Assembly: GCA_041660565.1 (NCBI GenBank)
Contig: JBAZWC010000001.1
Span: 6,155-70,154 of the forward strand
Direction of reading: 5' to 3'
Origin: Patescibacteria group bacterium
GTDB lineage: Bacteria > Patescibacteriota > UBA1384 > CAJBMM01
DNA: 64,000 bases
A program made the translations under genes and the position numbers. This document shows, piece by piece, positions 1-58,419 of this stretch. Numbering within the stretch: position 1 is the stretch's first letter; each line of letters opens with the position of its first letter. The notes under the pieces were generated by a model that was not told the origin of the DNA, did no database searches, and saw only the letters and a list, made by a program, of their open reading frames with translations.

Positions 1-1
1 G

Positions 2-220
2 CATCGTGGAACGCAGCTCGCTCCTCACCTGTTTCTCGAAGCTACAGAGGGCGAAGGCCTGGTAATGGTGGCGAAGTGGTTCGCTGGAATATGGCTACAG
101 ACCGTTACCGGCGACTACCAAATCAACGACCTGCGCTGGCCAACCAATACCAATGTAGTGCCATACGAGGCGATGATGGAAGCGCAGCGAATCCTCGCTG
201 AGTCACTCTCAACTCCGTAA
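2..220 (+). CDS. 3' end (about 72 codons) of an unknown ORF, partial at the window edge, inside high-GC cassette A
   Basis: An open frame from the window start to TAA at 218-220. High-GC codon usage unlike the host. No homology recognised. Confidence 0.3.
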   Translation, partial: HRGTQLAPHLFLEATEGEGLVMVAKWFAGIWLQTVTGDYQINDLRWPTNTNVVPYEAMMEAQRILAESLSTP

Positions 221-270
221 TGGACCACGCCCAGACGCATTTGTTTTGTTAGGAGGGAGGTGAGACTGCA

Positions 271-690
271 ATGCCTGAAATGTCAGATGTAACTGTTGTG
301 TGCTCCGATATACACTTTACCGAGGTTACGGTGTACTCGGTATTGCGAGTTGAGCATAACCGAATCATTCCAATCGATTCGAACAAACCCAACTCACGGA
401 TCACTCTGGTGTGCCCAGCATGTGGTGCGTTCCTCAATGTCCCAAGTAAGCCAAAGGGGCTGCCTAATGTTCTCGACGCGCACTACACGACAACCGCAGC
501 TAAGGTTGTGTACGGGCACCGATTCTTGGACGGTGACATCGCACACTGTGCCAAGGAAGTTGCAGATTGGTACGCACAGAAAAGGAAAGAGATGGCTAAT
601 AGTAGCTTCCCACACCGAAACCTCTGTGTTGTGGGTTGTGAAGATCCTTCAGCTACCCATCTCATTCAGGGGATCCTCGGACGTACCTGA
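271..690 (+). CDS. hypothetical protein (high-GC cassette A)
   Basis: 139-aa ORF preceded by the strong SD ggagggagg. Local GC is much higher than the genome. No recognisable domain. Confidence 0.45.
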   Translation: MPEMSDVTVVCSDIHFTEVTVYSVLRVEHNRIIPIDSNKPNSRITLVCPACGAFLNVPSKPKGLPNVLDAHYTTTAAKVVYGHRFLDGDIAHCAKEVADWYAQKRKEMANSSFPHRNLCVVGCEDPSATHLIQGILGRT

Positions 691-714
691 TGTGACTTTC
701 CTGGTCCAAATCCA

Positions 715-746
715 CCCGGACGATTCGTCGCCCGGGTGTTTCTTTT
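715..746 (+). terminator. rho-independent terminator closing cassette A
   Basis: Hairpin CCCGG-acgattcgtcg-CCGGG followed by the T-run tgtttctttt. Confidence 0.5.
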
Positions 747-762
747 ATGTTATAATCTGGCT

Positions 763-2220
763 ATGAAAATACCAACTCATATTAAACCGCAAATTGAAGC
801 TCTACCAAAAACGGCGGGGGTGTATTTTTTTAAAGGTGAGTTGGGCGAAATTATGTACGTGGGCAAAGCCAATAGCTTGCGCGACCGCGTTAAATCGTAC
901 TGGGCCAAAGAGCTAAATCGAAGCACGTTAATTTACAAAATGGTTGAGCAGGTGGTTACGATTGATTTTGAGCTGTGCGATTCGGGTATGGAAGCATTAA
1001 TTGCCGAGGCAAACTATATCAAACGTTTGCTGCCAAAATATAATACCCGTTTGAAGGATGATAAAAGTTATTATTACGTTAAATTAGATTCATCTGACGG
1101 CTCGGATTTCCCCAAACTGTTGCTGATTCGCAAAAATCAGATATTGGATGATGAAAAAAAAGTGCGCTATTTTGGTCCGTACACTTCGGCAAAAAATCTG
1201 CGCTTGGCACTCAAAATGATCCGTCGTATTTTCCCCTATCGATCATGCAACATTATGCCCCAAAAACCGTGTTTGCAATATCATATCAAACGGTGCAGCG
1301 CGCCGTGCGCCGGAAATATCGACCAAAAAGAATATGCCAAAACCATCTCGCGAATTGTAATGATGTTGGAAGGTAATACGCAAACACTAATTAAACAACT
1401 TAAAAAAGAGATGGATCAGCTGGCAAAAAAACAGTTGTTCGAACAGGCATCCGTTGTTCGCAACCAATACCTTGCCCTTCAACACTTGCGCCAATCGGCA
1501 AAAATTTTAGACGTTGACGATATTCGGGTCGAGGATAATGTTGAGGGCGTACCAGGTCGTCTGGAAGGGTTTGACGTCTCTAACCTGTCTGGAAAAGAAG
1601 CGGTTGTGTCGATGGTGGTATTTACCAGCGGAAAGCCGGACAAAAAGCGGTATAAAAAATTCAAAATTCGTGGCGTTTTTCAGCCCGATGATTACGCCAT
1701 GTTACAAGAGACAATTACCCGCCGTTTAATTAGGGCTAACGTTCGGCCAGATGGTGCGGAAGAGCTGGTTAACGCTGTCACCAACGATTTTTCTGCTGAC
1801 AATGAGTGGAGTCTGCCCGATATTTTCATTATCGATGGGGGCAAAGGCCAGGTTTCGGCGGTTAAGGCGGTTTTAGATCAATTTAACGTCGAAATTCCAA
1901 TAATTGGCATTGCCAAAGGTCCAGACAGAAAAGGCGAAGATTTGTATTTTTCAACTCAGACAGATTTTAAGGATATTAAAATAATTAGGTCAATTCGCGA
2001 TGAAGCCCATCGATTTGCCATTGCGTATCATCGTTTATTGCATCAGAAATCTATCATTAAATCTGAATTAGATGACGTTCCCGGTATTGGCAAAATTACT
2101 AAGACAAAATTGTTGAAACATTTTGGCTCGGTGGCCAAAATTAGACAAGCATCAGAGTTAGAAATTGCGTCAGTTGTTGGCCCAAAGCTAACCAAGGCTA
2201 TCATAAAACATCTAATTTGA
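763..2220 (+). CDS. uvrC: excinuclease ABC subunit C (UvrC)
   Basis: N-terminal GIY-YIG motif (GVYFFKG...MYVGKANSLRDRVKSY) and C-terminal HhH (IPGIGKITKTKLLKHFGS). The ATG at 763 is preferred over the GTG at 736. A TATAAT sits 6 nt upstream of the ATG. Confidence 0.85.
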   Translation: MKIPTHIKPQIEALPKTAGVYFFKGELGEIMYVGKANSLRDRVKSYWAKELNRSTLIYKMVEQVVTIDFELCDSGMEALIAEANYIKRLLPKYNTRLKDDKSYYYVKLDSSDGSDFPKLLLIRKNQILDDEKKVRYFGPYTSAKNLRLALKMIRRIFPYRSCNIMPQKPCLQYHIKRCSAPCAGNIDQKEYAKTISRIVMMLEGNTQTLIKQLKKEMDQLAKKQLFEQASVVRNQYLALQHLRQSAKILDVDDIRVEDNVEGVPGRLEGFDVSNLSGKEAVVSMVVFTSGKPDKKRYKKFKIRGVFQPDDYAMLQETITRRLIRANVRPDGAEELVNAVTNDFSADNEWSLPDIFIIDGGKGQVSAVKAVLDQFNVEIPIIGIAKGPDRKGEDLYFSTQTDFKDIKIIRSIRDEAHRFAIAYHRLLHQKSIIKSELDDVPGIGKITKTKLLKHFGSVAKIRQASELEIASVVGPKLTKAIIKHLI

Positions 2221-2284
2221 TTGTTTGGGCAATTTGGCGAAATGACAGGAGACATGAACTTTGCTATGCTTAAATTGAGGCAAT

Positions 2285-3319
2285 ATGGCTGACGAACCGT
2301 CTGGGTCGGAAGTAATGATCGACCTTAATATAGTGCTTAATAAAATGTCCGATGACAATGCGCGGTTATCGTTTTTGGAGAACTTGCGTAAAAAAGTTGA
2401 AGACAATTTGACTAGTAACCCAAAGTTAAAGCCATTACTATGGCAAATTGCCTCTGCGTTATCGCCAATATATATTCACCATAATCGTACTGAAGACGCT
2501 GCCAAGCTGTTTGAAAGTGCCGGTGTGTATGATCAAGCCGCGGTAAATTTTATGAAAGTCAGAGCGTTTGGCGATGCCGGGCGCTGTTACTCTAAAAACG
2601 GTGAGCACGAAAAGGCGCTTCAACTGTATACTCAAGCTGAAATGTGGTTGCCTGCTGCTGAAATTGCCGATCAAACAGGTAATCCGACAGTTGCCAAAAA
2701 CTTATATTCAAAGGCAATTGAACAGTTTACTAATAGTCGTGAGTACGAAAAAGCTGCTTATGCGGCGGAAAAGGCCGGTTTGGTTAAAGAAACTTTAACC
2801 TTGACCGCGGATCATATTGATCATATTGGTAATAAAGATTCCAAATTTTTGTACCAAGAGTTAGTGGAGCGGGCGCTGAAGGCAAATTTCAGACCGTTAG
2901 CGATTGAGCTGGCTATTCGAGGTGAGTTGTTTGACCAGGCTATTCAGATGGCAATCCAAGACCATCAAACCGATCAAGTGCCGGAAATTTATCAACAGTA
3001 TTTAAATTCACTTTATCCCAAAGAACGAATGCCGGTTTTTAAGCGCTACATATCATTTCTAACTGAGCACGCAACGGTTGCAGTGGTTAGAGTGGCGTAT
3101 CAGAAGGAAGTGAGGCATTTGATTGAGCGCGCAGAGCTTTTGTCTGCTGGGATGCTGGCAGAGGAAGCAAAGTTGCCAGAAGCGGCTGAAATTTATCGTC
3201 AAGCAATGGAAATAGCGGAGAGCAACGCTGATTTTGCCCAGGCAACCTTGGCTGCCACTAAACTTGGATTAGCTAGCGAAGCAAATTATTATCGCCAGTT
3301 GGCATCCATGATCGGATGA
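2285..3319 (+). CDS. hypothetical alpha-helical repeat protein
   Basis: 344-aa ORF with low-GC host-like composition. No confident domain. Confidence 0.5.
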   Translation: MADEPSGSEVMIDLNIVLNKMSDDNARLSFLENLRKKVEDNLTSNPKLKPLLWQIASALSPIYIHHNRTEDAAKLFESAGVYDQAAVNFMKVRAFGDAGRCYSKNGEHEKALQLYTQAEMWLPAAEIADQTGNPTVAKNLYSKAIEQFTNSREYEKAAYAAEKAGLVKETLTLTADHIDHIGNKDSKFLYQELVERALKANFRPLAIELAIRGELFDQAIQMAIQDHQTDQVPEIYQQYLNSLYPKERMPVFKRYISFLTEHATVAVVRVAYQKEVRHLIERAELLSAGMLAEEAKLPEAAEIYRQAMEIAESNADFAQATLAATKLGLASEANYYRQLASMIG

Positions 3320-3337
3320 TGAGAAATGCCGCAATCT

Positions 3338-3565
3338 GTCATTTCGACTCCTCGAGCCTTGTCTCGAGGGTGGCTTCCTGCCCTCTTAGGGCGTAAGCCC
3401 GGAGGGAGAAATCTACAAAATTAGAATTTTTAATTTTTAATTTTTAATTTCAAATGAAAGGTAGCCAATTTTAAATGACTAAATAAGGAACTATTTAAAA
3501 TTTAAACATTTGGTTCTTATTCATTTAAAATTTAGCCTTTAAAATTAAAAATTATGTCGGGACGC
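3338..3565. repeat. MITE-like intergenic repeat, family 1, right end truncated
   Basis: Starts with the TIR TGTCATTTCGAC and has an AT-rich core (aatttttaattttta...aaatgaaaggtagccaatttt...) that recurs at 51084-51338 and, inverted, at 55147-55401. Confidence 0.6.
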
Positions 3566-3606
3566 GTCACGTTTAATTATTGCTGAAGTAACGAATTTGA
3601 TTAGGT

Positions 3607-4647
3607 ATGAGCACAAAAACATTGTTTGACAAATGGTGGCATTATCTAAAATATAGCCCAACTGATCCGCATTTTTATGCCGATTCGGCACCAAAAGTGG
3701 TGGCAATTGGTGGTGGAACCGGCCTGTCTAGTTTACTACGCGGGCTAAAACAAATTACGCCAAACATTACTGCTATTGTTGCCGTTACGGACAATGGGCA
3801 GAGTAGCGGACGATTGCGAAAACTTTATGACACGTTGCCACCGGGAGATATTCGTCAGTGCATCGCCGCGCTTTCACCGGATGAGGATGTTTTAACCAAA
3901 CTAATGAACTATCGTTTCAAAAAAGGTGACGGGTTAAAGGGGCATGCGCTTGGAAATCTGCTGATGGTAGCGTTGGCAGATCAATCCGGTGGTTTTGACC
4001 GTGCCATCATTAGACTGAGCGAAATTTTACGTATTACTGGACGGGTAATGCCGGTTTCTTTAGGAAATATCCAATTAAACGCCAAATTAAAATCCGGCCA
4101 AGTGGTGGTAGGCGAGGAGCAAATTAGTCTTGCCGGGCACGATGACCCAATAGATCGTGTCTTTCTGCCTCATTCAGTGCGTGTTTATCCGCCCGCGGTA
4201 CAGGCGATACTTGAGGCCGATCTAATTATTATTGGCCCGGGTAGTTTGTACACCAGCGTAATTCCGCCTTTGCTTTTTTCGGGCATCACTAAGGCGCTAA
4301 AAAGCTCGTTGGCGGTTAAAGCTTATGTTTGCAACATCTCGACCGAGCGTGGCGAAACCGAAGGATATTCGGTTCAGAATCATATCGAAAAAATTGTAGA
4401 GGTGGTTGGGAAGAATGTCGTTAATTTTGCGTTGGTGAACAAAAATCATGTTAGATCAAACCAGATCCCAGAAGGCGAATTGGGATCGATTAAAGTGATT
4501 TCTACCAGGCAATCGATAATTGAGGGCGTGCGGATCAAATTAGATTCAGTATCAAATTCAAAACAGCCGTTGTATCATGACAGTATTCGTTTGGCGGAAG
4601 TGTTGATTATGGAATATAATGAAATCAAGAAAAGGTTGAAACGATGA
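3607..4647 (+). CDS. yvcK: YvcK/CofD-like gluconeogenesis factor (UPF0052)
   Basis: VVAIGGGTGLSSLLRGLK...AIVAVTDNGQSSGRLR motif block. Confidence 0.75.
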   Translation: MSTKTLFDKWWHYLKYSPTDPHFYADSAPKVVAIGGGTGLSSLLRGLKQITPNITAIVAVTDNGQSSGRLRKLYDTLPPGDIRQCIAALSPDEDVLTKLMNYRFKKGDGLKGHALGNLLMVALADQSGGFDRAIIRLSEILRITGRVMPVSLGNIQLNAKLKSGQVVVGEEQISLAGHDDPIDRVFLPHSVRVYPPAVQAILEADLIIIGPGSLYTSVIPPLLFSGITKALKSSLAVKAYVCNISTERGETEGYSVQNHIEKIVEVVGKNVVNFALVNKNHVRSNQIPEGELGSIKVISTRQSIIEGVRIKLDSVSNSKQPLYHDSIRLAEVLIMEYNEIKKRLKR

Positions 4648-5366
4648 AACCGTTGGTTGTGGCAAATTGGAAGATGAATACCACTTTGGCTGATGCCAGT
4701 GTGTTGGCAACGCTGGTGCGCAATCAGTTGCACGACTTAAGTGGGGTAGATGTGGTGCTTTGCCCGCCGTACATTTGGTTGCAAGAAGTCGCGTCAATCT
4801 TAGAGGTTTCGGCCAGGCATATCTATTTAGGAGCGCAAAACTGCCATCCAGATAAGTTTGGAGCACTAACTGGCGAAGTCTCGGTGGCGCAAGTTAAAGA
4901 TCTGTGCCAGTTTGTGATTGTGGGACATTCCGAGCGCCGTGAGCATTTTCATGAAACAAACGAATTTGTCAGCGACAAAGTGCAGGCGGTACTGGAAAAC
5001 GGAATGACGCCAATTTTGTGCGTAGGCGAAAAAACCAAATCTGACCGTAGTATTGGGCTGGTAATAGATGAATTGCATCAGTCGCTGGCTGGAATCAAGC
5101 CAGCCGAATACGAGAAGTTAGTAATTGCGTACGAGCCAATTTGGGCAATTGGCACCGGCAACGCGTCCGAGGCGGTTTACTGCGAAATGGTCTGCGATGA
5201 AATTAAAAAGGTTGTGGGCAAAGAAACACGAGTGTTGTATGGTGGCAGCGTTACTGCCGAAAACGTTGACCGATTTACTAGTCTAACAGCAATCGACGGT
5301 GTATTAGTGGGTGGCGCCAGTTTAAAGGCATCAGAATTTGTTGAGCTGTGTAAAAAGGTTAGATAA
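4644..5366 (+). CDS. tpiA: triosephosphate isomerase
   Basis: VVANWKMN, IVGHSERR and CVGE motifs. The ATGA stop/start overlaps yvcK. Confidence 0.9.
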   Translation: MKPLVVANWKMNTTLADASVLATLVRNQLHDLSGVDVVLCPPYIWLQEVASILEVSARHIYLGAQNCHPDKFGALTGEVSVAQVKDLCQFVIVGHSERREHFHETNEFVSDKVQAVLENGMTPILCVGEKTKSDRSIGLVIDELHQSLAGIKPAEYEKLVIAYEPIWAIGTGNASEAVYCEMVCDEIKKVVGKETRVLYGGSVTAENVDRFTSLTAIDGVLVGGASLKASEFVELCKKVR

Positions 5367-8954: not shown

Positions 8955-9051
8955 TCGAGCTGATTAGGGGAGGAAATGGATAATATCATTGCATCTTATC
9001 CTGTTTTGTGGTAAAACAATTATGGAAATCACATACCTCTGGGAGGTGCGC

Positions 9052-9396
9052 ATGGCTGATCACGGGTATCGCGCCACCGTTGGGTTGAAGGCGCGAACGA
9101 TGGCTGAAGCACAGAAGGTGGTCGCCCATCTGCGGGAAATGGACGGAATCGAGTTCGTTCTCGAGCCGTTCCAGATCCGCAGTGCCGCGGCGGCTGAGGA
9201 AGGCGCTGCTCAAGAGTCTCGGCCGCGAGTGCTAGCCCAGCAAGGTCTGGCAGCGGTTGCCGGCGGGGTGGCAAGCGGTGGCAATTGGTTTCGCGAGCAG
9301 TTGGACGAGGTCGCTCAGGAGGCTGAGGGGTGGCCACCGTGGCGCACAGCGGGCACTGATCGCTTCGCGCCGAGCAATGAGCCCGTGACGTTGTAG
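9052..9396 (+). CDS. hypothetical protein (high-GC cassette B, gene 1)
   Basis: ATG preceded by SD gggaggtg. GC is about 60-65%. No recognisable domain. Confidence 0.4.
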   Translation: MADHGYRATVGLKARTMAEAQKVVAHLREMDGIEFVLEPFQIRSAAAAEEGAAQESRPRVLAQQGLAAVAGGVASGGNWFREQLDEVAQEAEGWPPWRTAGTDRFAPSNEPVTL

Positions 9397-9431
9397 GTCG
9401 GTATGTCGTTTCTGGTGAGGGAAGGGAGGTG

Positions 9432-9803
9432 ATGAGCACAATGTCGTACAGTTTCGTTGTCGTGTGCGACGATGAAATCGATCAAGATCAGGCTTATGCC
9501 ATCACGCAAGAGGTTGATAGGATCCGAGGTGTTAGGTTCACCTACGCTCCCTATCGCAGTGGACCGGAGTCGGAGGCTCCGTCGCGACCGAAGACGTGGG
9601 GCGATGTCTTCCCGTCTGCACCGTTTTATCGAGCGGGATCGGCCGATCCGGTTGATATCCCGTTGGCAGATGGTGATGCGGACGACAAGCCGCCGCGGCC
9701 GGCGAAGGTGGGGGCTGCTCGGTTTGACTTCGCGGAGGTTGTGGAAGTCGAAGACCCTCCGCGGATGGAGAAGCAAGGGCATTACCCCGGCGAGGTCGGG
9801 TGA
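9432..9803 (+). CDS. hypothetical acidic protein (high-GC cassette B, gene 2)
   Basis: ATG preceded by SD gggagg. Acidic, Pro-rich sequence. No recognisable domain. Confidence 0.4.
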   Translation: MSTMSYSFVVVCDDEIDQDQAYAITQEVDRIRGVRFTYAPYRSGPESEAPSRPKTWGDVFPSAPFYRAGSADPVDIPLADGDADDKPPRPAKVGAARFDFAEVVEVEDPPRMEKQGHYPGEVG

Positions 9804-9816
9804 TACCGGGGTTATT

Positions 9817-9858
9817 GGGCGGGAGCTGCATTGCGCAGCCCTCGCCCGTTTTCTTTTC
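9817..9858 (+). terminator. rho-independent terminator closing cassette B
   Basis: GGGCGGGAGCTGCattGCGCAGCCCTCGCCCG hairpin followed by ttttcttttc. Confidence 0.55.
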
Positions 9859-9867
9859 TATCATCTG

Positions 9868-9896
9868 TTGACAAATGGTCGCGACTTTGATAAATT
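9868..9896 (+). promoter_or_regulatory. sigma70-like promoter upstream of the 16S rRNA
   Basis: TTGACA, a 17-nt spacer, then TAAATT. Confidence 0.5.
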
Positions 9897-10112: not shown

Positions 10113-11577
<1,465 letters not shown>

Positions 11578-11753
11578 AGGAGTCTAGCCCCTTTTTGTCG
11601 CAAGATAAATTGGTAGGTTAGGTCGATCGCTCCGATGTCCTGCTTGCAGGAACCGGAGTGACACTCTCGGAAACTGGTCACCCTCCTACGCTCCTTGGAG
11701 CTTCGGAAGGGCAAGATTGGCCACAAATAAGATGTAAATAGTTCTATAAAACA

Positions 11754-11791
11754 AAAATCCCCGTTAATTTGGGGATTTTTTGTGTGATGTG
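11754..11791 (+). terminator. hairpin terminator downstream of the 16S
   Basis: aaaaaTCCCCgttaatttGGGGAtttttt. A similar hairpin occurs at 12206-12231. Confidence 0.4.
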
Positions 11792-11816
11792 ATATTCTTG
11801 AAGAAAAGGAGTCGAA

Positions 11817-12197
11817 GTGGTAGAAAATGGTGCACCTAGTCCGGATGGTCAACGTCGGCAGCCAACGAATGAGGAATATGGTCGAATGTACGCGGAGGAT
11901 GATGCTTATGAGAAAAAAATTCGCGAGCTTACCGAAATGTCAGTGAGTTTTCTAAATGAGCTTGATCAAAGGTATGAAGCCGAAGGTAATTTAACTGGAC
12001 TGATAGCAACCAAATATTGTGAAGAAGTGGCAGATTGGCTTGGGCAAAACCCTGAATGCTGTGAGCCGTTTTTAGAGGTGTATTTTGAGCGTAATAGACA
12101 TAAATATGACGAGAGTACCTTGGCATCGCAGTTGGTAAATGAGCACGGTGTGTTGCTAGCGGCGGTGGCTAGAAAAGCAAAACCAGTAACCAACTAG
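11817..12197 (+). CDS. hypothetical protein
   Basis: GTG start 5 nt after SD aaaggag; 126 aa; sits between the 16S and 23S. Confidence 0.45.
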   Translation: MVENGAPSPDGQRRQPTNEEYGRMYAEDDAYEKKIRELTEMSVSFLNELDQRYEAEGNLTGLIATKYCEEVADWLGQNPECCEPFLEVYFERNRHKYDESTLASQLVNEHGVLLAAVARKAKPVTN

Positions 12198-12246
12198 TTA
12201 ATCCAAAAATCCCCAAATCAAGGGGATTTTTGTGTAATTGATAATC

Positions 12247-12334
12247 TGGTGGGCGTACATGGATTTGAACCATGGACCTCGTCATTATATTTCGTGCTTC
12301 GCGCGAAATTATTTACAACTGAGAAATCGCCTAT
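12247..12334 (-). pseudogene. tRNA-Ile 3'-half remnant
   Basis: Repeats the T-arm and acceptor 3' half of the adjacent tRNA-Ile (gacgaggtccatggttcaaatccatgtacgcccacc) but has no 5' half. Confidence 0.5.
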
Positions 12335-12335
12335 C

Positions 12336-12412
12336 TGGTGGGCGTACATGGATTTGAACCATGGACCTCGTCATTATCAGTGACGCGCTCTAACCAACTG
12401 AGCTATACGCCC
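12336..12412 (-). tRNA. tRNA-Ile (anticodon GAT)
   Basis: The reverse complement GGGCGTATAGCTCAGTTGGTTAGAGCGCGTCACTGATAATGACGAGGTCCATGGTTCAAATCCATGTACGCCCACCA folds as a cloverleaf with GAU in the loop. Confidence 0.9.
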
Positions 12413-12415
12413 TTT

Positions 12416-12508
12416 ATGCCCACCAGATAACAGATTTTCAGTTGTAAATATCATTGTACGCGCTCTAACCAACTGCCTGCCCTTCCGTAGCCTTGGCGAA
12501 GGAGGGAG
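12416..12508 (-). pseudogene. degenerate tRNA-Ile 5'-half remnant with a short-repeat insertion
   Basis: gggcgtatagct / cagttggttagagcgcgt are split by the inserted short repeat ccctccttcgccaaggctacggaagggcagg. Confidence 0.45.
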
Positions 12509-12617
12509 CTATACGCCCGTGTTTGATGTTAATATCATAACAAATTCTGACGCTTTCAGCAAGACCGTGCAATATGATATGTTAAACGCGTAATAAGATA
12601 ATAAATATGGAGAGAAT

Positions 12618-12944
12618 ATGGATCATGCAAATGTAACCACTGCTTTGGAACTACCGGACAAGAAAATTGTCAAAAATTTGGGATTAGTACGCGGGGTAAC
12701 TGTTCGTTCTCGTTCAATGTTTGGCACCATTGGTGCTTCATTCCAAACTTTATTTGGTGGAAACATCTCTTTATTCACCGAGTTGTGTGAGAAAACGCGA
12801 CAAGAGGCGTATGATATTATGATCAAACACGCCGAAACTATGGGCGCAAACGCCATCATTGCAGTTAGATACGATGCCAACGAAGTGATGCAAGGCGCCA
12901 CCGAAGTATTGTGCTACGGCACCGCTGTTGTGGTGAAAGAATAA
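12618..12944 (+). CDS. YbjQ/UPF0145 family protein
   Basis: Typical UPF0145 length and motif pattern (GANAIIAVRYD...). Confidence 0.7.
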   Translation: MDHANVTTALELPDKKIVKNLGLVRGVTVRSRSMFGTIGASFQTLFGGNISLFTELCEKTRQEAYDIMIKHAETMGANAIIAVRYDANEVMQGATEVLCYGTAVVVKE

Positions 12945-12947
12945 TCT

Positions 12948-13289
12948 ATGAACACGTACCAAATGAGGCTGGCGAAGAGTCAGTTTGATATGATACGAAA
13001 CGGACAAAAGATTATCGAGTCTAGAATATGCGACGAAAAGAGACAGCGTCTTAATATCGGGGATGACGTGCTGTTTATATCCAGAAACGATCCTAAGCAA
13101 ACAGTCCTGACAAAAATCAAAGCACTTTTTCGCTACGCTACTTTTGATGATTTATTTACGGATTTCCCCCCTGAGTTGTTCGGAAATCATTCAAAATCCG
13201 CGCTGATTCAAGATGTCAGAGAGTTCTACTCTGTTGATGAAGAAAAGAAGTATGGCGTTGTTGGAATTAAAATTGAGTTAGTAAAATAA
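12948..13289 (+). CDS. ASCH domain protein
   Basis: A small ASCH-like beta-barrel pattern (RLNIGDDVLF). Confidence 0.55.
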   Translation: MNTYQMRLAKSQFDMIRNGQKIIESRICDEKRQRLNIGDDVLFISRNDPKQTVLTKIKALFRYATFDDLFTDFPPELFGNHSKSALIQDVREFYSVDEEKKYGVVGIKIELVK

Positions 13290-13290
13290 A

Positions 13291-13752
13291 ATGCTATCAA
13301 CCCCACATATATTAACCGGATCGGCTATTGGCAAAATAGCGGCGCCTTTAGGCTTGCCGGCAGTTTTTGCGCTCGGATTCATTAGTCATTTTGTATTAGA
13401 TTTAATTCCGCACACCGATGCAGCGCTACTAGAAAGTTCAACCGAAGATCATACCTCGACCCACGACCTATTAGTGGTGATTGCCGAGGTCGTGGTTGGC
13501 ACAGGGCTGTTTTTGTATTTTTGGTATATCAGCCACTGGAATCTGAGTTTATTAGTTGGCGCATTTGGGGCAACACTACCGGATTTATTTGACAACGCGC
13601 CGTGGTGGAAAAAATGGTTTCGCACTTCCAAACTTGGCTCAATTTTTCACTATCTGCATGAGCTGGTTGATGGCGGGCTAGAGAAAAATAAATTACTTGG
13701 CATCGCTACGCAATTTTTGGTTATTGCCGTGGCCATTATTGTTTTGACCTAA
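13291..13752 (+). CDS. hypothetical membrane protein
   Basis: Several hydrophobic helices; no known domain. Confidence 0.5.
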   Translation: MLSTPHILTGSAIGKIAAPLGLPAVFALGFISHFVLDLIPHTDAALLESSTEDHTSTHDLLVVIAEVVVGTGLFLYFWYISHWNLSLLVGAFGATLPDLFDNAPWWKKWFRTSKLGSIFHYLHELVDGGLEKNKLLGIATQFLVIAVAIIVLT

Positions 13753-13771
13753 ATCGTGCTAAATTAGAACT

Positions 13772-13996
13772 ATGTGGATGATTATCTTACGTCGATTATT
13801 TGTTGGCCCAATTGCTATTCTGCTTGGGTATTTGTTGATCAAATATACCGACCGACTTTTGATGTCTGTTGGTAATCCAGAATGGATGGATAATTTTCCC
13901 GGCGGGGCACAGGCTGTTTGGAAAATCGCCGGTATTATACTAATAATGCTCGGAATCGTCGTCTTGTTAGGCGGATTCTCGAGCATGGGTTTGTGA
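13772..13996 (+). CDS. small hypothetical membrane protein
   Basis: 74 aa with two hydrophobic segments. Confidence 0.4.
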   Translation: MWMIILRRLFVGPIAILLGYLLIKYTDRLLMSVGNPEWMDNFPGGAQAVWKIAGIILIMLGIVVLLGGFSSMGL

Positions 13997-13997
13997 T

Positions 13998-14072
13998 TGG
14001 TGGACCTGAGAGGATTTGGACCTCCGACCTCTTCCTTGCAAAGGAATTGCTCTACCACTGAGCTACAGGCCC
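13998..14072 (-). tRNA. tRNA-Ala (anticodon TGC)
   Basis: The reverse complement GGGCCTGTAGCTCAGTGGTAGAGCAATTCCTTTGCAAGGAAGAGGTCGGAGGTCCAAATCCTCTCAGGTCCACCA has a G3:U70 pair and UGC in the loop. Confidence 0.85.
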
Positions 14073-14139
14073 TTAACTTTTCGACTGTCTGTCAAAACTT
14101 ATTTTAACATAAAATTTAACTAATTACTACGTCAATCGC

Positions 14140-14454
14140 TTAGAATTTATTCCATTTTGGGTTTTGGAGATAGAATAGGTCTTCTTTGACAATGAATTTG
14201 ACTCCTTCCTTCTCGAGGAGGATTTTTTGTTGCGTGGGAGTGACGCTTGGGTTAACAATCGAAATATATCCTTTAGCATTAATCACCCGCCACCAAGGGA
14301 TTTCAACTTCTGCGGGTAATCGTCTGAGTGCCCAGCCGACAACGCGAGCGCCGTTTTGTAGTCCCGCTGCTTTTGCTACATCACCGTAACTAGCCACAAT
14401 ACCGGAGGGTATTTTGGCGACGATTGAATATATTTTGGTATAAAGTTCAGACAT
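14140..14454 (-). CDS. alkyltransferase-like protein (MGMT DNA-binding domain, catalytic Cys replaced)
   Basis: YGDVA...ARVVGWAL...PWWRV in place of the PCHRV active site. The true start is ATG at 14452-14454. The upstream extension to 14712 in the six-frame ORF track is spurious because it runs over repeat and high-GC DNA. Confidence 0.7.
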   Translation of the reverse strand: MSELYTKIYSIVAKIPSGIVASYGDVAKAAGLQNGARVVGWALRRLPAEVEIPWWRVINAKGYISIVNPSVTPTQQKILLEKEGVKFIVKEDLFYLQNPKWNKF

Positions 14455-14460
14455 TATAAT

Positions 14461-14560
14461 CCTTGTAGGGGTGGGTCTCGACCCGCCCACGGGCGGACAT
14501 CCTCCTTCGCCAAGGCTACGGAACGACAAGTATGAGTCCGCCCCTACATTGCTCGGAGAA
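14461..14560. repeat. nested short palindromic repeats
   Basis: GTAGGGG...GGGCGGAC[cctccttcgccaaggctacgg...]GAGTCCGCCCCTAC. The same outer palindrome, without the insert, occurs at 58600-58640. Confidence 0.5.
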
Positions 14561-14612
14561 TATGATAGTGAAAAAGGAAGGCCCGCCTGCGAACGTCGCA
14601 GGCGGGGTCGAG

Positions 14613-14840
14613 CTACTGTGGGATCTCCTCTAGGGGAGAGGGGGTTCCTGCATGGAAGCAATCGGGCTGGTCGGCGTGATAGTGTCCGGTGAAACCAAGC
14701 GCGGAGCCCCATGCGAACTGAACGATTGGGGAGAAGTATCTGCCCCTTGGTTGTCTCGGGCTGTCATCTACCCGATCTAGTTGTGGAGGGGGCGATCCCT
14801 CCGGAATTGTGAGGACTAACTCCTGCCCATCAGGCATCAT
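14613..14840 (-). CDS. hypothetical small protein (high-GC cassette C), doubtful
   Basis: 75-aa ORF with SD ggagg upstream. High GC makes a spurious ORF quite possible. Confidence 0.25.
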   Translation of the reverse strand: MMPDGQELVLTIPEGSPPPQLDRVDDSPRQPRGRYFSPIVQFAWGSALGFTGHYHADQPDCFHAGTPSPLEEIPQ

Positions 14841-14964
14841 AAGTTCCTCCGAAAATGGCTTAGCATCTTGGCCTTAATTTAATCATATTCTTATGTGTCC
14901 AGGCGGCGCAACTTGTACAAATCCAGCGGCCTGTGTCATAATTAAGAGTGAGAAATGAGGGGAA

Positions 14965-15717
14965 ATGCCACAAGCACAAAATTTACATCGTCGTACAACA
15001 CATCCAAAAGCAGACGATAATGTTTCGCCAAAAGTCAATCGGAAAAATAGCAAAAAAGCCGAAGCTGAAAAAGTGGATTTACATGTTTTGCCTGTGGAAA
15101 AACATGAATCTTTTCACGAGTTTTATCCGTTAAACGTAACCAAAGTTGAGACTGAAAAAACCGGTGGGTACATTGGTTTGATTATTGGGTTGGTAATTCT
15201 GGCGCTGGTGGGTGGGCTGACGTTTTGGTACGTAAAAGAGCAGAACAATGCCACCAGTTCATCATCAACGCCAGCAAGCTCGGATCAAACCGGCGCCTCG
15301 ACGAAATATCAAAACTCTACGTATGGATTTAATCTAACCCTTCCTAGTACATGGAAAACGGTTAAATACTCGGACGGCACGGTTTGCACTGCTACAAATT
15401 GTCCGGTGGCAGATATAATTTTTGTGATGCCTGTTGGGGGCGCATCGGACAGCATTGCGCTGTTAGCTCTTGACGTGTATTCAATCGCAAATTACACTGC
15501 CTTGGTTAGTGCCGCAACAATAAGTGGTGGGGTCGCGCCTGTGTTGGTAGGGCAGACTGACCAGTACGCGGTGGTAGTAAATTCGCAAGCAACTCGTGAA
15601 TCTGGTACGACCGAGTTGGTTGGGATGGCGATTGATGCAATTCCAACGGTATTAAACTCATTTATAGCCACAACGCCGGTTGTAACCCCAACTCCGACCG
15701 CGACAGCCACACCTTAA
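14965..15717 (+). CDS. hypothetical membrane-anchored secreted protein
   Basis: One TM segment after about 65 aa, a Thr/Ser-rich region, and a TPTPTATATP tail. Confidence 0.5.
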   Translation: MPQAQNLHRRTTHPKADDNVSPKVNRKNSKKAEAEKVDLHVLPVEKHESFHEFYPLNVTKVETEKTGGYIGLIIGLVILALVGGLTFWYVKEQNNATSSSSTPASSDQTGASTKYQNSTYGFNLTLPSTWKTVKYSDGTVCTATNCPVADIIFVMPVGGASDSIALLALDVYSIANYTALVSAATISGGVAPVLVGQTDQYAVVVNSQATRESGTTELVGMAIDAIPTVLNSFIATTPVVTPTPTATATP

Positions 15718-15803
15718 TCATGAAATAAAATAGATTTGACAAGCCCGCCTCTACACTGGTCGTGGCGTTTATTCTCCATTTGTGCTAAAATAATGTTAGA
15801 AAT

Positions 15804-15879
15804 GGGCCTGTAGCTCATCTGGTAGAGCGCAGCATTCGCATTGCTGAGGTAAGGAGTTCGAGTCTCCTCAGGTCCACCA
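15804..15879 (+). tRNA. tRNA-Ala (anticodon CGC)
   Basis: GGGCCTGTAGCTCATCTGGTAGAGCGCAGCATTCGCATTGCTGAGG...TTCGAGTCTCCTCAGGTCCACCA with G3:U70, encoded CCA, and loop TTCGCAT. Confidence 0.85.
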
Positions 15880-15902
15880 AATCAGAGGATGGGAGATGGA
15901 AT

Positions 15903-16232
15903 ATGGATGATGGAAACAGTGATTTTTATTGCGATTTTGTTTTAAATGACAAGATTAAGGTCAATATTATCAAAGAGACAGACATGGTACTGGCCTTCTT
16001 TCACACTAAACCATCTTGGGCTTTTCATGTAGTGATTGTGCCAAAAACTCATATATCAAATATTACTGAGCTAAAAGATCTGGCGATAATTGAAGAAATT
16101 TTTAAAATCGCACAAGAAATTATTAATAACAATAATCTCAAGGCTATAAATTATCGCATAATCACCAATGGTGGTGGTTTTCAGGACTCAAAACATTTGC
16201 ATTTTCATTTAGTGTCTGGGGATAAGTTGTGA
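15903..16232 (+). CDS. HIT family hydrolase
   Basis: Histidine triad HLHFHLV near the C-terminus. Confidence 0.75.
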   Translation: MDDGNSDFYCDFVLNDKIKVNIIKETDMVLAFFHTKPSWAFHVVIVPKTHISNITELKDLAIIEEIFKIAQEIINNNNLKAINYRIITNGGGFQDSKHLHFHLVSGDKL

Positions 16233-16302
16233 AAAAGCTATTGCATTGTTTTTTAAACCATATAGAATTAATATATAAGTAATAAATATTTAGGAGGGGT
16301 TT

Positions 16303-16554: not shown

Positions 16555-16565
16555 TTGTAAAATCG

Positions 16566-16595
16566 TTGACATTTCATATCAGTTTGTGATAAGAT
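16566..16595 (+). promoter_or_regulatory. candidate promoter in front of the long 23S leader
   Basis: TTGACA, an 18-nt spacer, then TAAGAT. About 700 nt of non-coding AT-rich leader lies before the 23S. Confidence 0.35.
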
Positions 16596-43005: not shown

Positions 43006-43037
43006 AGTATAGAATATTGACGATGGATTTCTTTGTT

Positions 43038-43191
43038 TGTCATTTCGACCCGAGGAGTGTGTCAACACGACTACGATGGAGAAATCTAAGAAAAAATCTC
43101 ATCCGCAATTTTAAATTGTAAATTGAAAATTTCAAATTCTTTTGTAAGATCTCTCCACCCTCTCGACAACGCTCGAGGAGTCGAGATGACA
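43038..43191. repeat. MITE-like repeat, family 1, short copy
   Basis: TGTCATTTCGAC ... GTCGAGATGACAA termini with an aatttcaaat core. Confidence 0.6.
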
Positions 43192-48357: not shown

Positions 48358-49109
48358 TGGAATCTTTCCGCTTGACGTTGCTTCCATTCATCTACCAAAT
48401 GTACCTGACGCCCGGCGTCTGAACGGCAACGGTCACGCAACTGATCGCGACTGTCTACCCAGCGCTCACCGTTCCAAAACTCTAACTGATCAAAGTTAGT
48501 TTTATACAAACCTTTATCGCCATAGGCGGTGCCTAAATAATGATATTTTTTGCCATCATCTTTAGCGTATTTAATACAATCGGTCATTAGCCACAACCCA
48601 AGTGAATTGGAAAAATGTTCAAGGTTGTAAAAGGAATAAATATAATGACTCATCTGGTCATCTTGAATCAAAAAACAGTAGCCAAAAACTTCATTATCTT
48701 TTTTGTATTCAATAATGTCGGTAATTACGCCCATATCCAAAATCTGTCTAAACCGACTTTCAGGCATTACTCTTTCGCCAAATCGTTCGCCAAAATAATG
48801 CAGGCAAAAATGGACAAATTTGGGGTCGTGGGTGTCAAATTTAGTAATGGGGATAAGAGTTGATTTTAGATCGTTAAATTTGGCATAGATGCGACGGTTT
48901 TCGCTGTTCATCTGCCAATCATCTAGTTTGATTCGCACGCTACGAGACATATAGTACATATTATTAATGCCTTTGGTGCCGGTGTAGGGTAGGAAGCCGA
49001 GGTTGTAGATATCTGCTAGTTTGTCACCATCTTCGCGTACGGCGTAAGTGGTGTAGCCAAAAGTGTAGGTGCCGTAATCTTGCATTAGTTCGGAATTAAA
49101 TATTTTCAT
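48354..49109 (-). CDS. aminoacyl-tRNA-dependent transferase-like protein (ATE_C / FemABX-like GNAT fold)
   Basis: C-terminal YHYLGTAYGDKGLYKTNFDQLEFWNGERW resembles the Ate1/Bpt C-domain. The true start is ATG at 49107-49109; the longer track ORF runs into repeat DNA. Confidence 0.45.
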   Translation of the reverse strand: MKIFNSELMQDYGTYTFGYTTYAVREDGDKLADIYNLGFLPYTGTKGINNMYYMSRSVRIKLDDWQMNSENRRIYAKFNDLKSTLIPITKFDTHDPKFVHFCLHYFGERFGERVMPESRFRQILDMGVITDIIEYKKDNEVFGYCFLIQDDQMSHYIYSFYNLEHFSNSLGLWLMTDCIKYAKDDGKKYHYLGTAYGDKGLYKTNFDQLEFWNGERWVDSRDQLRDRCRSDAGRQVHLVDEWKQRQAERFQ

Positions 49110-49139
49110 ACGTAAATTATAACATAATATATGGAAATG

Positions 49140-49310
49140 TTCTTTCTTGTTCGAACGCAGCGAGAACTCTGTTGGGGGTGCATGACAGTTCTCGTCGCAG
49201 TGCTCCTCGAACAAGAACAGACTGGATTCTGGACCAGTCTCGACGAGGTTGAGCAGAGGTGGATCAAGCCCAGAATGGCAAAGAATAAGCCCGGGGACGT
49301 CGTGTGACAT
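49140..49310. repeat. palindromic repeat, family 4 (TTCTTGTTCGAAcg...cGAACAAGAA) plus a family 2-like tail
   Basis: TTCTTGTTCGAACGCAGCGAGAACTC...AGTTCTCGTCG...CTCGAACAAGAA. Homologs occur at 58420-58500 and in part at 57395-57430 and 58565-58600. Confidence 0.55.
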
Positions 49311-49319
49311 CCTCGGGCA

Positions 49320-49844
49320 TTAGGCATCCTCCTGTTGGCTGGCACGGAGCAGTACCTCTTCGTCAGGGCGATCAGATGGCCGCAGCAGCCTGGCGGTTTT
49401 GGCAGCCTCGTCCACGGCCAGTTTCCTCGCCAACTCAGCGAGCCTTCTTTCCTCCGCCTGCGCTTTTCGGATGACCTCGGCTTGTTCTACAACGGTAACC
49501 TCGTGGGCGATCTCCTGCTGTTGACGAGTGCCCCACTGTACGGCTGCCTGGCTGGGAGTAACAATCAGGTACTTCCAGAACGCTTTGGCAACCGCCCCGA
49601 TCGAGGGTGAATGTATCCAGCAACATATCAGGAGCAATGTCCACTCCCAAAGTGATCTGTGACTGTGATGCGTGACAAGATCGAATATCGTGACAAATCC
49701 GATGGCCATCCCGAATGCCCATATACCTACCGCGAAACCGCAAGTGCTCTCACCCACCCAATTTGGGACATACATAACGGCACGCCCAAATCGGCGAAGC
49801 TTTCGGCCAAGGTATCGGCCGATTGCTTTCAGCCAAATGTGCAT
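49320..49844 (-). CDS. hypothetical membrane protein (high-GC cassette F)
   Basis: ATG at 49842-49844 after SD aggagg and a TGGACA-17-TAAAAT promoter. Two TM helices then a charged helical tail. Confidence 0.4.
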   Translation of the reverse strand: MHIWLKAIGRYLGRKLRRFGRAVMYVPNWVGESTCGFAVGIWAFGMAIGFVTIFDLVTHHSHRSLWEWTLLLICCWIHSPSIGAVAKAFWKYLIVTPSQAAVQWGTRQQQEIAHEVTVVEQAEVIRKAQAEERRLAELARKLAVDEAAKTARLLRPSDRPDEEVLLRASQQEDA

Positions 49845-50092
49845 CTCCGTGAACCTCCTGTTGAGGGGAACTTGCGGCACGGTGCCACAATGACCATATT
49901 TTACACCATTTTTAGAACTTTGTCCAGTGGTTTGCCACTCTATCCTCCTCACCCGGCCTACGGCCACCCTCTCCTCTAGGAGGAGAGGGAAACCTCGAAA
50001 CCCTTCTCCTCGTTTTGAGGAGAAGGTGCCTGAAAGGCGGATGAGGAGCTACAAATTCTGACTTTTGTTGTTGAAAAGTGTATAATGGCAAT

Positions 50093-55146: not shown

Positions 55147-55401
55147 TGTCATTTCGACTCGGGGAGAGCGTCGGCTCGACCACGCTTCAAGAAATCTAAG
55201 AAAGAATCTCATCCATAATTATAAATTTTAAAGGCTAAATTTTTAATGAATAAGTACCGAATGATTAAATTTTAAATGGTTCCTTATTTAGTCATTTAAA
55301 ATTGGCTTCCTTTCATTTGAAATTGAAAATTGAAAATTTAAAATTCTCATATTGTAGATTTGCACACGCCCCAATTGGAACATCGAGGAGTCGAGATGAC
55401 A
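55147..55401. repeat. MITE-like repeat, family 1, full-length copy in the opposite orientation to 51084-51338
   Basis: TGTCATTTCGAC...GTCGAGATGACAA, with a core that is the reverse complement of 51140-51270. Confidence 0.65.
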
Positions 55402-57357: not shown

Positions 57358-57507
57358 ACTGGATTCCCGCCTTCGCGGGAATGACAACTCGAAGATAGTT
57401 CTCGGTTATGCCTCGAACAAGAAAACCGTAGTCCAAGCTTTCGTGACCTCCGTAGCTCGGAGAGCGAAGGGGGTAGTTTGTTTTCCTCATAACACACTAA
57501 AGCGTGG
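57357..57507. repeat. composite repeat (family 2 unit, family 4 tail and family 3 unit); left flank of cassette G
   Basis: ctggattcccgccttcgcgggaatgacaac...agttctcggt...cgaacaagaaaaccg. Then ccgtagtccaagctttcgtgacctccgtagctcggagagcgaaggggg, which is homologous to 41130-41225. Confidence 0.55.
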
Positions 57508-57523
57508 TCTACGAACGCCAAAC

Positions 57524-57552
57524 TTGACTAAATGTGTAATATATGCTAATAT
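57524..57552 (+). promoter_or_regulatory. sigma70-like promoter of cassette G
   Basis: TTGACTaaATGT, a 17-nt spacer, then TAATAT. The -35 context TTGACTAnATGT is shared with the cassette D promoters. Confidence 0.5.
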
Positions 57553-57626
57553 AGTTGCTAGAACCTGAACATTGGCCCAAACCGTTGGGCCATCATCGCC
57601 GGCGGGCTTACGCAAGGGAGAATTCG

Positions 57627-58241
57627 ATGGCTGACTCTGAGCTGATGCTCGATGTCGGGCAGGCGAATGAGCTCAAGTTGGCTTTCCGCAGATGCGGATG
57701 GACCAACGAAGAGATCAAGAAGCTTAGTGAGGGCGACACTCTGGTCGGGGTGCGGCAGGTGATTCGTGGCGAGGCCACGATTCAGGCAGTCGAAGCGTCG
57801 AAGTTGCTTGAAGACGTCGGCACCTACGGCGTCGATGTGGTCACGGAATTCGACGCCGAGACGGAGTTGGTCGAGGGAAAGCACGGCATCAGTTGGGCCA
57901 GCGAAGAGTTCAAGAAATTCATCGCTGGCAAGATCGAGACCAATGTTCCGGCGGCGCGGCTCCGCGTCAGCAAACTGCTTAGGCAGTCGGTGGATGGCCC
58001 GATCATCGCCGAACTGGGTGGTGAGGCGACGGTAGAGACGTTCTTGGCATGGCTGTCGCAGCTGTTGGGGAAGCTTCCCCACGGCCGCTATCTTTTCTAT
58101 GTCAAGGACGCCCAAGGAAGGCTTTGGGTGGTTCACTGCTTATGGTACTCCAGCTACAGCGGCTGGTGCCTGAACGTCGACTCGGTTGCGAAACTGTTCC
58201 AGTGGACTGTCGGCAACCAGTTCCTCTCTCGCGATTCTTGA
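57627..58241 (+). CDS. hypothetical protein (high-GC cassette G)
   Basis: ATG after SD aaggga. About 205 aa and roughly 60% GC. No recognisable domain. Confidence 0.45.
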   Translation: MADSELMLDVGQANELKLAFRRCGWTNEEIKKLSEGDTLVGVRQVIRGEATIQAVEASKLLEDVGTYGVDVVTEFDAETELVEGKHGISWASEEFKKFIAGKIETNVPAARLRVSKLLRQSVDGPIIAELGGEATVETFLAWLSQLLGKLPHGRYLFYVKDAQGRLWVVHCLWYSSYSGWCLNVDSVAKLFQWTVGNQFLSRDS

Positions 58242-58288
58242 ACCTCTGACCCTTGGGTCTTAGTGCCACTCTGGTGCTCTGACCCTTT

Positions 58289-58324
58289 GGCCCTCTGACA
58301 CTTTGTCGGAGGGCCATTGTTTGT
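58289..58324 (+). terminator. rho-independent terminator closing cassette G
   Basis: GGCCCTCtgacactttgtcgGAGGGCC followed by attgtttgt. Confidence 0.5.
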
Positions 58325-58419
58325 ATATAATACAACAGGAAACTGTGGGATGGTGGCTACGGCTTTCGTCCACGTTTCAGATTGTTGTTTACTCCAGAAT
58401 TGCTTTATATATCACCTTC

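Follow-up and report, generated by a model that had tools for sequence, protein, structure and literature searches.

Seven GC-rich islets among housekeeping genes

The 64-kb stretch analysed here (the window) lies near the start of a 516,109-bp contig of a Patescibacteria metagenome-assembled genome (MAG; contig JBAZWC010000001.1, locus tags WC773_, proteins MFA60818xx) and contains seven short GC-rich segments, here termed islets, each with its own small genes, lodged between housekeeping genes; one of them, island 7, encodes a protein (C7) related to the variable proteins of diversity-generating retroelements (DGRs). The contig likewise occurs in JGI/IMG and among the Logan contigs of run SRR18595301. 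The first-pass annotation of the window had described the segments as what looks like a family of horizontally acquired or selfish cassettes of 55-65% GC, in a background of about 38% GC, with a donor of high GC as a fitting source, for example an actinobacterium that hosts an episymbiont. All seven are compositional outliers, but their GC averages 52-59% (52.1, 58.1, 54.3, 56.7, 54.4, 55.6 and 55.8% for islands 1-7, by the coordinates of that annotation), and the GC of the whole window is 44.7%, with a background of 43-45%.

Window GC, GC at third codon positions (GC3) and oligonucleotide signature, for which dinucleotides were used, all place the islets outside the host distribution. The 500-nt windows within islets have a mean GC of 56.0%, whereas those outside the islets and rRNA genes have a mean of 43.2% (sd 3.4, maximum 52.0), with none of 486 reaching 54%. 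The Karlin dinucleotide distance between islets and host is 155, compared with 33±11 (maximum 74) for a null of length-matched host samples. The islet open reading frames (ORFs) have the coding pattern GC1>GC3>GC2, with GC3 values of 0.52-0.75 against 0.33-0.55 for host genes, the exception being the doubtful 42-aa C4m (0.44), and their coding strands are poor in A (18-26% compared with 30% in host genes). Spurious antisense ORFs are present, as had been stated. In GC, codon-position GC and oligonucleotide signature the islets thus lie outside the genome distribution, which is how horizontally acquired islets are defined by composition. They are very small (0.3-1.7 kb) and very dense (seven in 64 kb), their units making up about 9% of the window; when islands are defined by a GC at least 10 points higher than the mean for at least 450 nt, this 64 kb has 7 of them, compared with 8 in 780 kb of unrelated metagenome loci.

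Island 1, which had been placed at 1-750, is a three-gene unit that starts about 590 nt upstream of the window, with its 3′ part at 1-746 (+ strand, GC 52%). This part holds the C-terminal 72 codons of C1a (2-220; 155 aa in whole in Logan contig L008), C1b (271-690; 139 aa, CPxCG zinc-ribbon-like) and a terminator (712-746). In L008 an extended -10 element, TGTGCTATAAT, lies directly 3′ of an aminoacyl-tRNA synthetase (aaRS) gene and is followed by C1z, C1a and C1b, each with a GGAGG Shine-Dalgarno (SD) sequence; C1z (79 aa, hydrophobic) may be located in the membrane. Island 2 (8989-9857, + strand, GC 58-59%) lies between clpP and the 16S promoter (9868-9896) and comprises a promoter-like TTGCAT-17-TAAAAC (8989-9017), C2a (9052-9396, 114 aa), C2b (9432-9803, 123 aa) and a terminator (9817-9857, -24 kcal/mol); its SDs are GGAGG or GGGAGG, and C2a and C2b have no similarity to each other. 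Island 3 (14571-14840, - strand) had been assigned to the 23S region; it actually lies between MGMT-like and PsbP-like genes. Its C3 (14613-14840, - strand) is a doubtful 75-aa ORF with a GGAGG SD and a strong terminator (14571-14607); the ORF was called by JGI and Logan, with no NCBI source listed, and its C terminus extends into an interspersed repeat. A GC-rich element (14465-14547) resembling a repetitive extragenic palindrome (REP) adds to the GC peak here.

Island 4 (31574-32390, + strand), followed by recO at 32554, consists of a GC-rich tRNA-like gene (31574-31647), three short overlapping ORFs, i.e. C4a (31696-31914), C4m (31904-32032; 42 aa, doubtful) and C4b (32025-32315), and a terminator (32353-32390). 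It has no promoter of its own, the nearest promoter-like site (31359-31388) being upstream of the tRNA-like gene. The latter directly abuts the island about 185 nt downstream of this strong promoter-like site, and is aberrant: it scores 36.5 bits, has a 6-nt anticodon loop (TTAGCA) and is assigned no anticodon by ARAGORN. Island 5 is double. Island 5a (35705-36533, + strand) has a promoter (TTGACT-17-TATATT, 35705-35733), C5a (35789-36481; 230 aa, GTG start) and a terminator (36498-36533), and island 5b, its diverged tandem duplicate (36590-37391, + strand), likewise has a promoter (36590-36618), C5b (36672-37328, 218 aa) and a terminator (37356-37391), after which a GlyRS-like aaRS gene starts at 37430.

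Island 6 (49280-49925, - strand) is read from a promoter-like GGACAA-17-(TG)TAAAAT (49898-49925) through C6 (49320-49844, - strand) to a hairpin with a T-rich tail (49280-49317). C6 (174 aa) has a hydrophobic N-terminal half and a charged helical C-terminal half, and is possibly membrane-located. The FemAB/ATE-like gene beside it starts at 49108, leaderless after TATAAT, so 49109-49319 is a non-coding spacer with repeats. Island 7 (57524-58324, + strand), which is convergent with the gene for a class A penicillin-binding protein (PBP), has a promoter (TTGACT-17-TAATAT, 57524-57552), C7 (57627-58241; 204 aa, a homolog of DGR-type variable proteins) and a terminator-like hairpin (58291-58324). 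C3 and C6 are thus the proteins encoded on the minus strand. The proposal that every islet sits immediately upstream of the promoter of a conserved gene needs amending for island 7, where C7 lies at the 3′ end of the PBP gene, and for the misplaced island 3.

A repeat of the form TAGTTCTC-N8-16-TCGAACAAGAA brackets island 7, with one copy on its left (57396-57423), two on its right (58435-58506 and 58567-58595) and an inverted partial copy. Variants of GAGTTCTC form an inverted pair adjoining island 6 (49142-49215), where the island 7 repeat recurs. A role of the repeat in recombination or insulation, linked to the islets, is conceivable.

Expression signals, in addition to composition, set the islets apart as a class. 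GGAGG SDs are frequent at islet ORFs (7 of 11) and rare at host genes (3 of 46; Fisher p=1e-4), and a strong terminator (a hairpin of -12 kcal/mol or better with a T-run) ends 7 of 8 islet units compared with 3 of 34 host genes (p=3e-5), two of those three host cases being REP elements; the eighth islet unit falls narrowly below the threshold for T count. Since the 3′ end of the 16S rRNA is CCUCC, GGAGG SDs are usable in this host. Promoters of the σ70 type, of the form TTGACT-17-TAnnnT, precede units 2, 5a, 5b and 7, and extended -10 elements precede units 1 and 6. The islet promoters are AT-rich and similar to that of the host 16S gene; the -35 motif TTGACTAnATGT was found only at the promoters of 5a, 5b and 7. 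The description of the islets as units with one to three small ORFs is borne out, and that of self-contained units with promoter, SD and terminator largely so, island 4 lacking a promoter of its own.

In contrast, uvrC, glyS, murB and the FemAB-like gene lack an SD and carry TATAAT 6-7 nt ahead of the ATG (starts at 763, 37430, ~50094 and 49108), and on account of this short distance look leaderless, which suggests that leaderless mRNAs are widespread in this genome. The starts in the ORF list for uvrC (736) and the FemAB-like gene (49310) seem too long.

Logan contigs, made with a different assembler, span both junctions of islands 1 (L008, 9.4 kb), 2 (L007, clpP-C2a-C2b), 5 (L006, methyltransferase-101 aa-C5a-C5b-aaRS) and 7 (L001), so a chimera is unlikely at these four. 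L001 is 100% identical to 57361-61622 of the window, including C7; identity at this level was verified by BLAST for L001 only.

Island 7 and the diversity-generating retroelement link

The first-pass annotation found no recognisable homology for the islet proteins. This does not apply to C7, for which we identified 192 homologs, the named sources being mostly Moranbacteria, Parcubacteria, Paceibacterota and other Patescibacteria. Characteristic of the family are a near-invariant module of three helices at the N terminus (LMLDVGQANELKLAFRR...) and variable C-terminal halves. The closest homolog, P0020 (45% identity over the full length), is encoded on a 206-kb Patescibacteria contig (L095), immediately followed by the genes for bAvd and an RVT_1 reverse transcriptase (RT). 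The last 122 nt of the P0020 gene (the variable repeat, VR; 10561-10682) pair with a repeat 475 nt downstream (the template repeat, TR; 11036-11157) at 82% identity, and all 22 of the 22 mismatches are at TR adenines. This anatomy, including differences between VR and TR that are confined to adenines, is as described for DGRs (PMC5758913). Such adenine-only differences are the defining DGR signature, and P0020 is thus a DGR target. In systems of this type the RT copies the TR, misreading adenines, and the cDNA takes the place of the VR at the 3′ end of the target gene, thereby rewriting the ligand-binding surface of its product.

The 3′ end of C7 (VR-like segment, 58115-58238, + strand) aligns without gaps to the L095 VR/TR, the identity being 71% where the TR has no A and 42% at its A sites. 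It closes with a motif, TCTCTCGCGATTCT (58225-58238, + strand), that matches the initiation of mutagenic homing (IMH) site of L095, TCTCCCGCGATTCT; TCTCnCGCGATTCT is common to the two IMH-like ends. Just 3′ of the C7 stop codon there is an inverted repeat, GACC-CTTG-GGTC (58248-58259, + strand), that parallels GGCC-TTCG-GGCC in L095. Among 13 members of the C7 subfamily, entropy is 2.64 bits at the columns of TR-AAY (Asn) codons compared with 1.10 bits at the other VR columns (p=8e-6). The predicted fold of the C-terminal domain is C-type-lectin-like (CLec-like), as in DGR targets, and Foldseek searches with C7 gave no significant matches in PDB or BFVD.

These comparisons, which are of sequences and of a predicted fold, identify C7 as a DGR-type variable-protein gene. 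With the variable proteins of known DGRs, such as Bordetella phage Mtd, Treponema TvpA and the targets in DPANN archaea and in the candidate phyla radiation (CPR) to which Patescibacteria belong (PMC5758913, PMC8144416), C7 has in common the CLec-like fold, the VR scaffold and the IMH-like end; it differs in being solitary, in its near-invariant N-terminal three-helix module and in that the whole gene of the C7 subfamily, beyond the VR, is 11-15 GC points above the genome. Two negative results bear on DGR activity at C7. Sensitive blastn revealed no second copy of 58115-58238, i.e. no TR, in the 64-kb window, and the RT and Avd of L095 gave no tblastn match there. With no TR, RT or Avd within 64 kb of a contig of about 516 kb, present DGR activity on C7 is unproven, and the alternatives for C7 are a remote target, served by a DGR at another site in the genome, and a former target that is now orphaned.

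The lack of a nearby RT is compatible with C7 being a DGR target, because some cellular DGRs are documented to act on targets more than 100 kb away (PMC5758913). Remote targets and a clade of cellular DGRs restricted to Patescibacteria have been described (PMC5758913, PMC8144416), and it has been stated explicitly that stand-alone targets are missed by DGR surveys centred on the RT (PMC8144416). The C7 homologs on contigs L098, L100, L102 and L104 are likewise solitary between housekeeping genes, with no RT within 8-10 kb. The possibility that all the islets are targets of one DGR was rejected, as their 3′ ends have no common VR-like repeat.

On L095 the DGR (target, TR, bAvd and RT) is bracketed by 67-nt direct repeats of 93% identity (9648-9714 and 12573-12639), which hints at a mobile cassette. 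Further GC-rich small ORFs on this contig encode a 76-aa zinc-ribbon-like protein (12755-12985) and a 157-aa lipoprotein-like protein (17295-17768).

Origin of the islets

The islets other than island 7 encode lineage-restricted small proteins (C1z/C1a/C1b, C2a/C2b, C4a-b, C5a/C5b and C6, with C3 doubtful), for which the earlier statement on homology stands, apart from one remote homolog of C5. Of the islet proteins scanned, which for island 4 were C4a and C4b (Pfam and PHROGs), none had a match above noise in Pfam, PHROGs, PADLOC or NCBIfam, and every 90% protein cluster checked holds this MAG only. A comparison with phage databases had been advised in the first-pass annotation; tblastn of all islet proteins gave no match in phage (50,697 records) or plasmid collections, and IMG/VR scans with C7, the C7 family profile, the C5 profile, C6 and C1a were likewise negative. 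C5a found only itself among 5.8 billion clustered proteins, and a C5a/C5b profile searched against 1.84 billion representatives had P0019, a remote homolog, as its sole credible hit (E 9e-5; 96% probability in hhalign). P0019 is present in 40%-GC contigs and has a native GC of 38%. PDB sequence searches for A1, A2, C6, C1b and C2b gave noise only (e.g. T4 lysozyme or SOX-2 at E>0.003), and the AF2 model of C5a, from a 2-sequence alignment, was unusable (pLDDT 29). We consider that the orphan proteins may be the products of fast-evolving surface, interaction or conflict genes. The contig with P0019 (L089; JGI 3300013123, 1-4663; 40% GC) carries a string of ORFans together with an AP endonuclease and a macro-domain gene; both upstream regions inspected in it (a 230-aa ORF at 855 and P0019 at 2572) have a promoter and an SD, and P0019 also has a terminator.

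In an all-against-all comparison the islets showed no similarity beyond the tandem pairs C5a/C5b (27% identity, E 3e-18) and C1a/C1b, which are diverged paralogs (E 2e-5). The 90 nt of promoter and 5′ untranslated region (UTR) of C5a and C5b (35692-35781 and 36577-36666) are 82% identical, with a 29-nt exact block, GTGTTGCCTGCAAAACTGCGCAGAGTACC, which suggests a conserved regulatory site or recent conversion; a riboswitch or leader was considered for this 5′UTR and rejected, as there was no Rfam match and no fold better than those of shuffles. Neither terminal inverted repeats nor target-site duplications were found, matches across islet borders being within a shuffle null except for the tandem duplication of island 5 and the local repeat around island 7. 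The Pfam scan, which covered 10 islet proteins and 20 host ORFs, detected no integrase, and there is no transposase or attC at the islets and no 3′ repeat shared between units. The islets therefore have neither the inverted repeats, target duplications and transposase of transposons, insertion sequences or miniature inverted-repeat elements, nor the promoterless ORF, attC and array beside intI of integron cassettes. For island 4 as a tRNA-integrated island or prophage remnant, we found only an 8-nt match (GTCCGCCC), within chance, and no integrase.

Our preferred reading, which we hold to be probable rather than secure, is that the islets are genuine accessory-gene islets that were acquired horizontally, with C7 a DGR-type target and without actinobacterial capture. 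Each would be a small autonomous transcription unit, with a σ70-type promoter, a GGAGG ribosome-binding site, one to three small genes and an intrinsic terminator, lodged in a spacer between housekeeping genes that for the most part have leaderless or weak-SD starts and no hairpin terminators. The islets are heterogeneous and not copies of one element, two of them holding diverged tandem paralog pairs. The most likely source would be other, GC-richer Patescibacteria or their unsampled mobile elements, with insertion at intergenic spacers. The earlier suggestion of foreign acquisition is to this extent plausible, the islets being foreign-looking in composition, but there is no support for an actinobacterial donor.

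Insertion into spacers is supported indirectly by an interruption of the conserved recO-glyS adjacency by island 5 and other genes. Among 80 metagenome loci, recO lies ≤2 kb upstream of glyS in 16 and ≤500 nt upstream in 11. The two are separated by 4.17 kb in the window (33262-37429), a stretch that holds alr, a methyltransferase gene, a 101-aa ORFan of host-like GC, C5a and C5b. The recO-glyS spacer looks like an insertion hot spot.

Several considerations weigh against our preferred reading. The evidence for horizontal acquisition is compositional throughout. No close relative with an empty site emerged, the best GlyRS match in metagenome contigs being 61%, and a scan of GTDB representative genomes, of which this genome is not one, with alanine racemase gave relatives of 33-36% only. 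The deep homology searches that are valid covered C5 and C7, and independent support for the junctions covers islands 1, 2, 5 and 7. Four C7-subfamily genes exceed the GC of their own genomes by 10.8 to 14.9 points, despite being only 42-45% identical, and a GC excess that tracks the host in this way fits an intrinsic offset at least as well as transfer.

An intrinsic offset, in which the islets are long-resident vertical genes with a GC raised by a local force and without recent transfer, is accordingly the alternative that we take most seriously, although we think it unlikely. The force might be gene conversion with a GC bias, acting on accessory loci that are prone to recombination, or else selection for mRNA properties or adenine content. 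The excesses (+13.5, +14.9, +11.6 and +10.8 points) occur in genomes of 36.6-48.4% GC, and gene GC follows host GC (r=0.95), but with an n of only 4. Host-like, AT-rich islet promoters and SDs that fit the host anti-SD also speak for it, as do coding strands depleted in A and the negative outcome for mobility genes and insertion scars. However, the dinucleotide signature, beyond GC, is strongly unlike that of the host, the 90% protein clusters checked are confined to this MAG, and subfamily-2 genes and the C5 homolog P0019 have no GC excess. The distinct SD and terminator usage is also easier to explain by import.

Phage remnants, or moron genes delivered by phages, are improbable as a source. 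The architecture is moron-like, in that the islets are compact units with promoter, SD and terminator between undisturbed unrelated genes, the tandem paralogs are fast-evolving, and island 4, with its three short overlapping ORFs, abuts the 3′ end of a tRNA-like gene. Unlike morons, the islets have no prophage context and lie between core housekeeping genes. They also lack phage homologs (no PHROG match, no match in the phage records or, for the proteins and profiles scanned, in IMG/VR, and an empty BFVD fold search for C7), as well as an integrase or att duplication. Phages are, moreover, usually not GC-richer than their hosts.

Slightly less credible still is the original proposal of a family of selfish cassettes from a high-GC donor. 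It accounts for the contrast in GC and signature, for the self-contained architecture and for most islet proteins being ORFans. Against a family, the islets have no common sequence beyond the tandem pairs and the -35 motif of islands 5 and 7; against selfish or mobile elements, all the hallmarks sought (integrase, transposase, attC, terminal inverted repeats and target-site duplications) are absent. Against an actinobacterial donor stands the one islet with relatives, since C7 belongs to a mostly Patescibacteria family whose members in 52%-GC Patescibacteria have native GC. Such a donor also fits poorly with the C5 homolog in a 40%-GC contig and with the AT-rich, σ70-type promoters, similar to that of the host 16S gene. 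The islet GC3 is well below the level expected for actinobacterial genes.

An assembly artefact, by which high-GC reads of another organism were joined chimerically into the contig, is suggested by the short, compositionally odd islets in a MAG, and agreement with Logan stops short of read-level proof as run SRR18595301 may underlie both assemblies, but it is very unlikely because contigs from an independent assembler span four islets, and 14 precise joins, each placing a complete promoter-SD-ORF-terminator unit exactly in a spacer, are implausible.

Genomic setting and implications

The genome, of roughly 0.5 Mb, is that of a member of the Patescibacteria, and the window has features typical of CPR bacteria, with unlinked 16S and 23S rRNA genes, a 23S gene with extra sequence and spacers rich in interspersed repeats. 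Most neighbouring genes were named correctly in the first-pass annotation: uvrC, clpP, recO, murB and a GlyRS-type class-II aaRS are borne out by Pfam, and the class A PBP was identified via precomputed Pfam matches of a Logan contig; an alanine racemase gene is also present in the window. The 16S gene (10114-11574) and the 23S gene (17271-21565) are 5.7 kb apart (11575-17270). The interval contains YbjQ, ASCH, MGMT-like, PsbP-like and HIT genes, island 3, tRNA-Ile(GAT) and tRNA-Ala(TGC) on the opposite strand and tRNA-Ala(CGC) on the + strand, and a 58-nt partial duplicate of the 3′ half of tRNA-Ile adjoins that gene (12231-12288 and 12320-12377). The 23S gene is 4295 nt long, compared with 2925 nt for the model, and its ~1.4 kb of extra sequence together with two LAGLIDADG endonuclease ORFs within it (19301-19828 and 20029-20583) points to the probable presence of two introns. 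Immediately downstream of the 5S rRNA gene is a gene (21854-24952) for a 1032-aa protein with a bacterial Ig-like (Big_13) domain, which may be a surface protein.

The interspersed intergenic repeats include the families TGTCATTCCGG...CCGGAATC, TGTCATTTCGAC...GGAGAAATCT and GTAGGGGCGG..., and runs of AATTTCAAATTT. Examples are at 29329-29367, 43037-43087 and 14465-14547, and at 3409-3556 and 55214-55361; among these intergenic repeats is a 148-nt inverted pair (91% identity) whose copies lie 51.6 kb from each other.

The islets represent nothing unusual in kind: they are small accessory islets, and one of them adds a new member to the known class of DGR targets. With small horizontally transferred islets the present ones have in common atypical GC, GC3 and signature, lineage-restricted genes, the position of one beside a tRNA-like gene and the interruption of the conserved recO-glyS adjacency. 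They differ in their size and density (0.3-1.7 kb, seven in 64 kb) and in having no mobility genes or direct repeats. Like integron cassettes they are short, single-gene and mostly ORFan units, but integron cassettes are promoterless, carry attC and are arrayed beside intI, whereas the islets are dispersed, with their own promoter and terminator and without attC or integrase.

A more speculative idea, to which we give rather little weight, is that small Patescibacteria genomes have a 'plug-in' compartment of GC-rich, adenine-poor mini-operons, marked by strong SDs and intrinsic terminators amid leaderless housekeeping genes, that house hypervariable or fast-evolving interaction proteins, including stand-alone DGR targets, and that the roughly constant offset of +11-15 points of the C7 subfamily in four genomes is linked to the locus and not to recent import. 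Were this so, the offset would come from a locus-bound mechanism, for example a GC bias tied to retroelements or recombination, or selection that disfavours adenines in the vicinity of DGR targets.

Overall, the results replace host-to-episymbiont capture by selfish cassettes, which is unsupported, with an account that can be tested. The transcription and translation signals of the islets differ from those of the core genes, and at least one unit appears to belong to a DGR system of the type enriched in CPR bacteria. Stand-alone DGR-type targets among housekeeping genes would escape surveys centred on the RT (PMC8144416). Two regularities are worth following in this respect. The contrast in SDs and terminators with a leaderless core provides a simple flag for the flexible genome in such MAGs, and the GC excess with which the C7 family of DGR targets tracks its hosts is an unexplained regularity that can be checked across thousands of CPR genomes.

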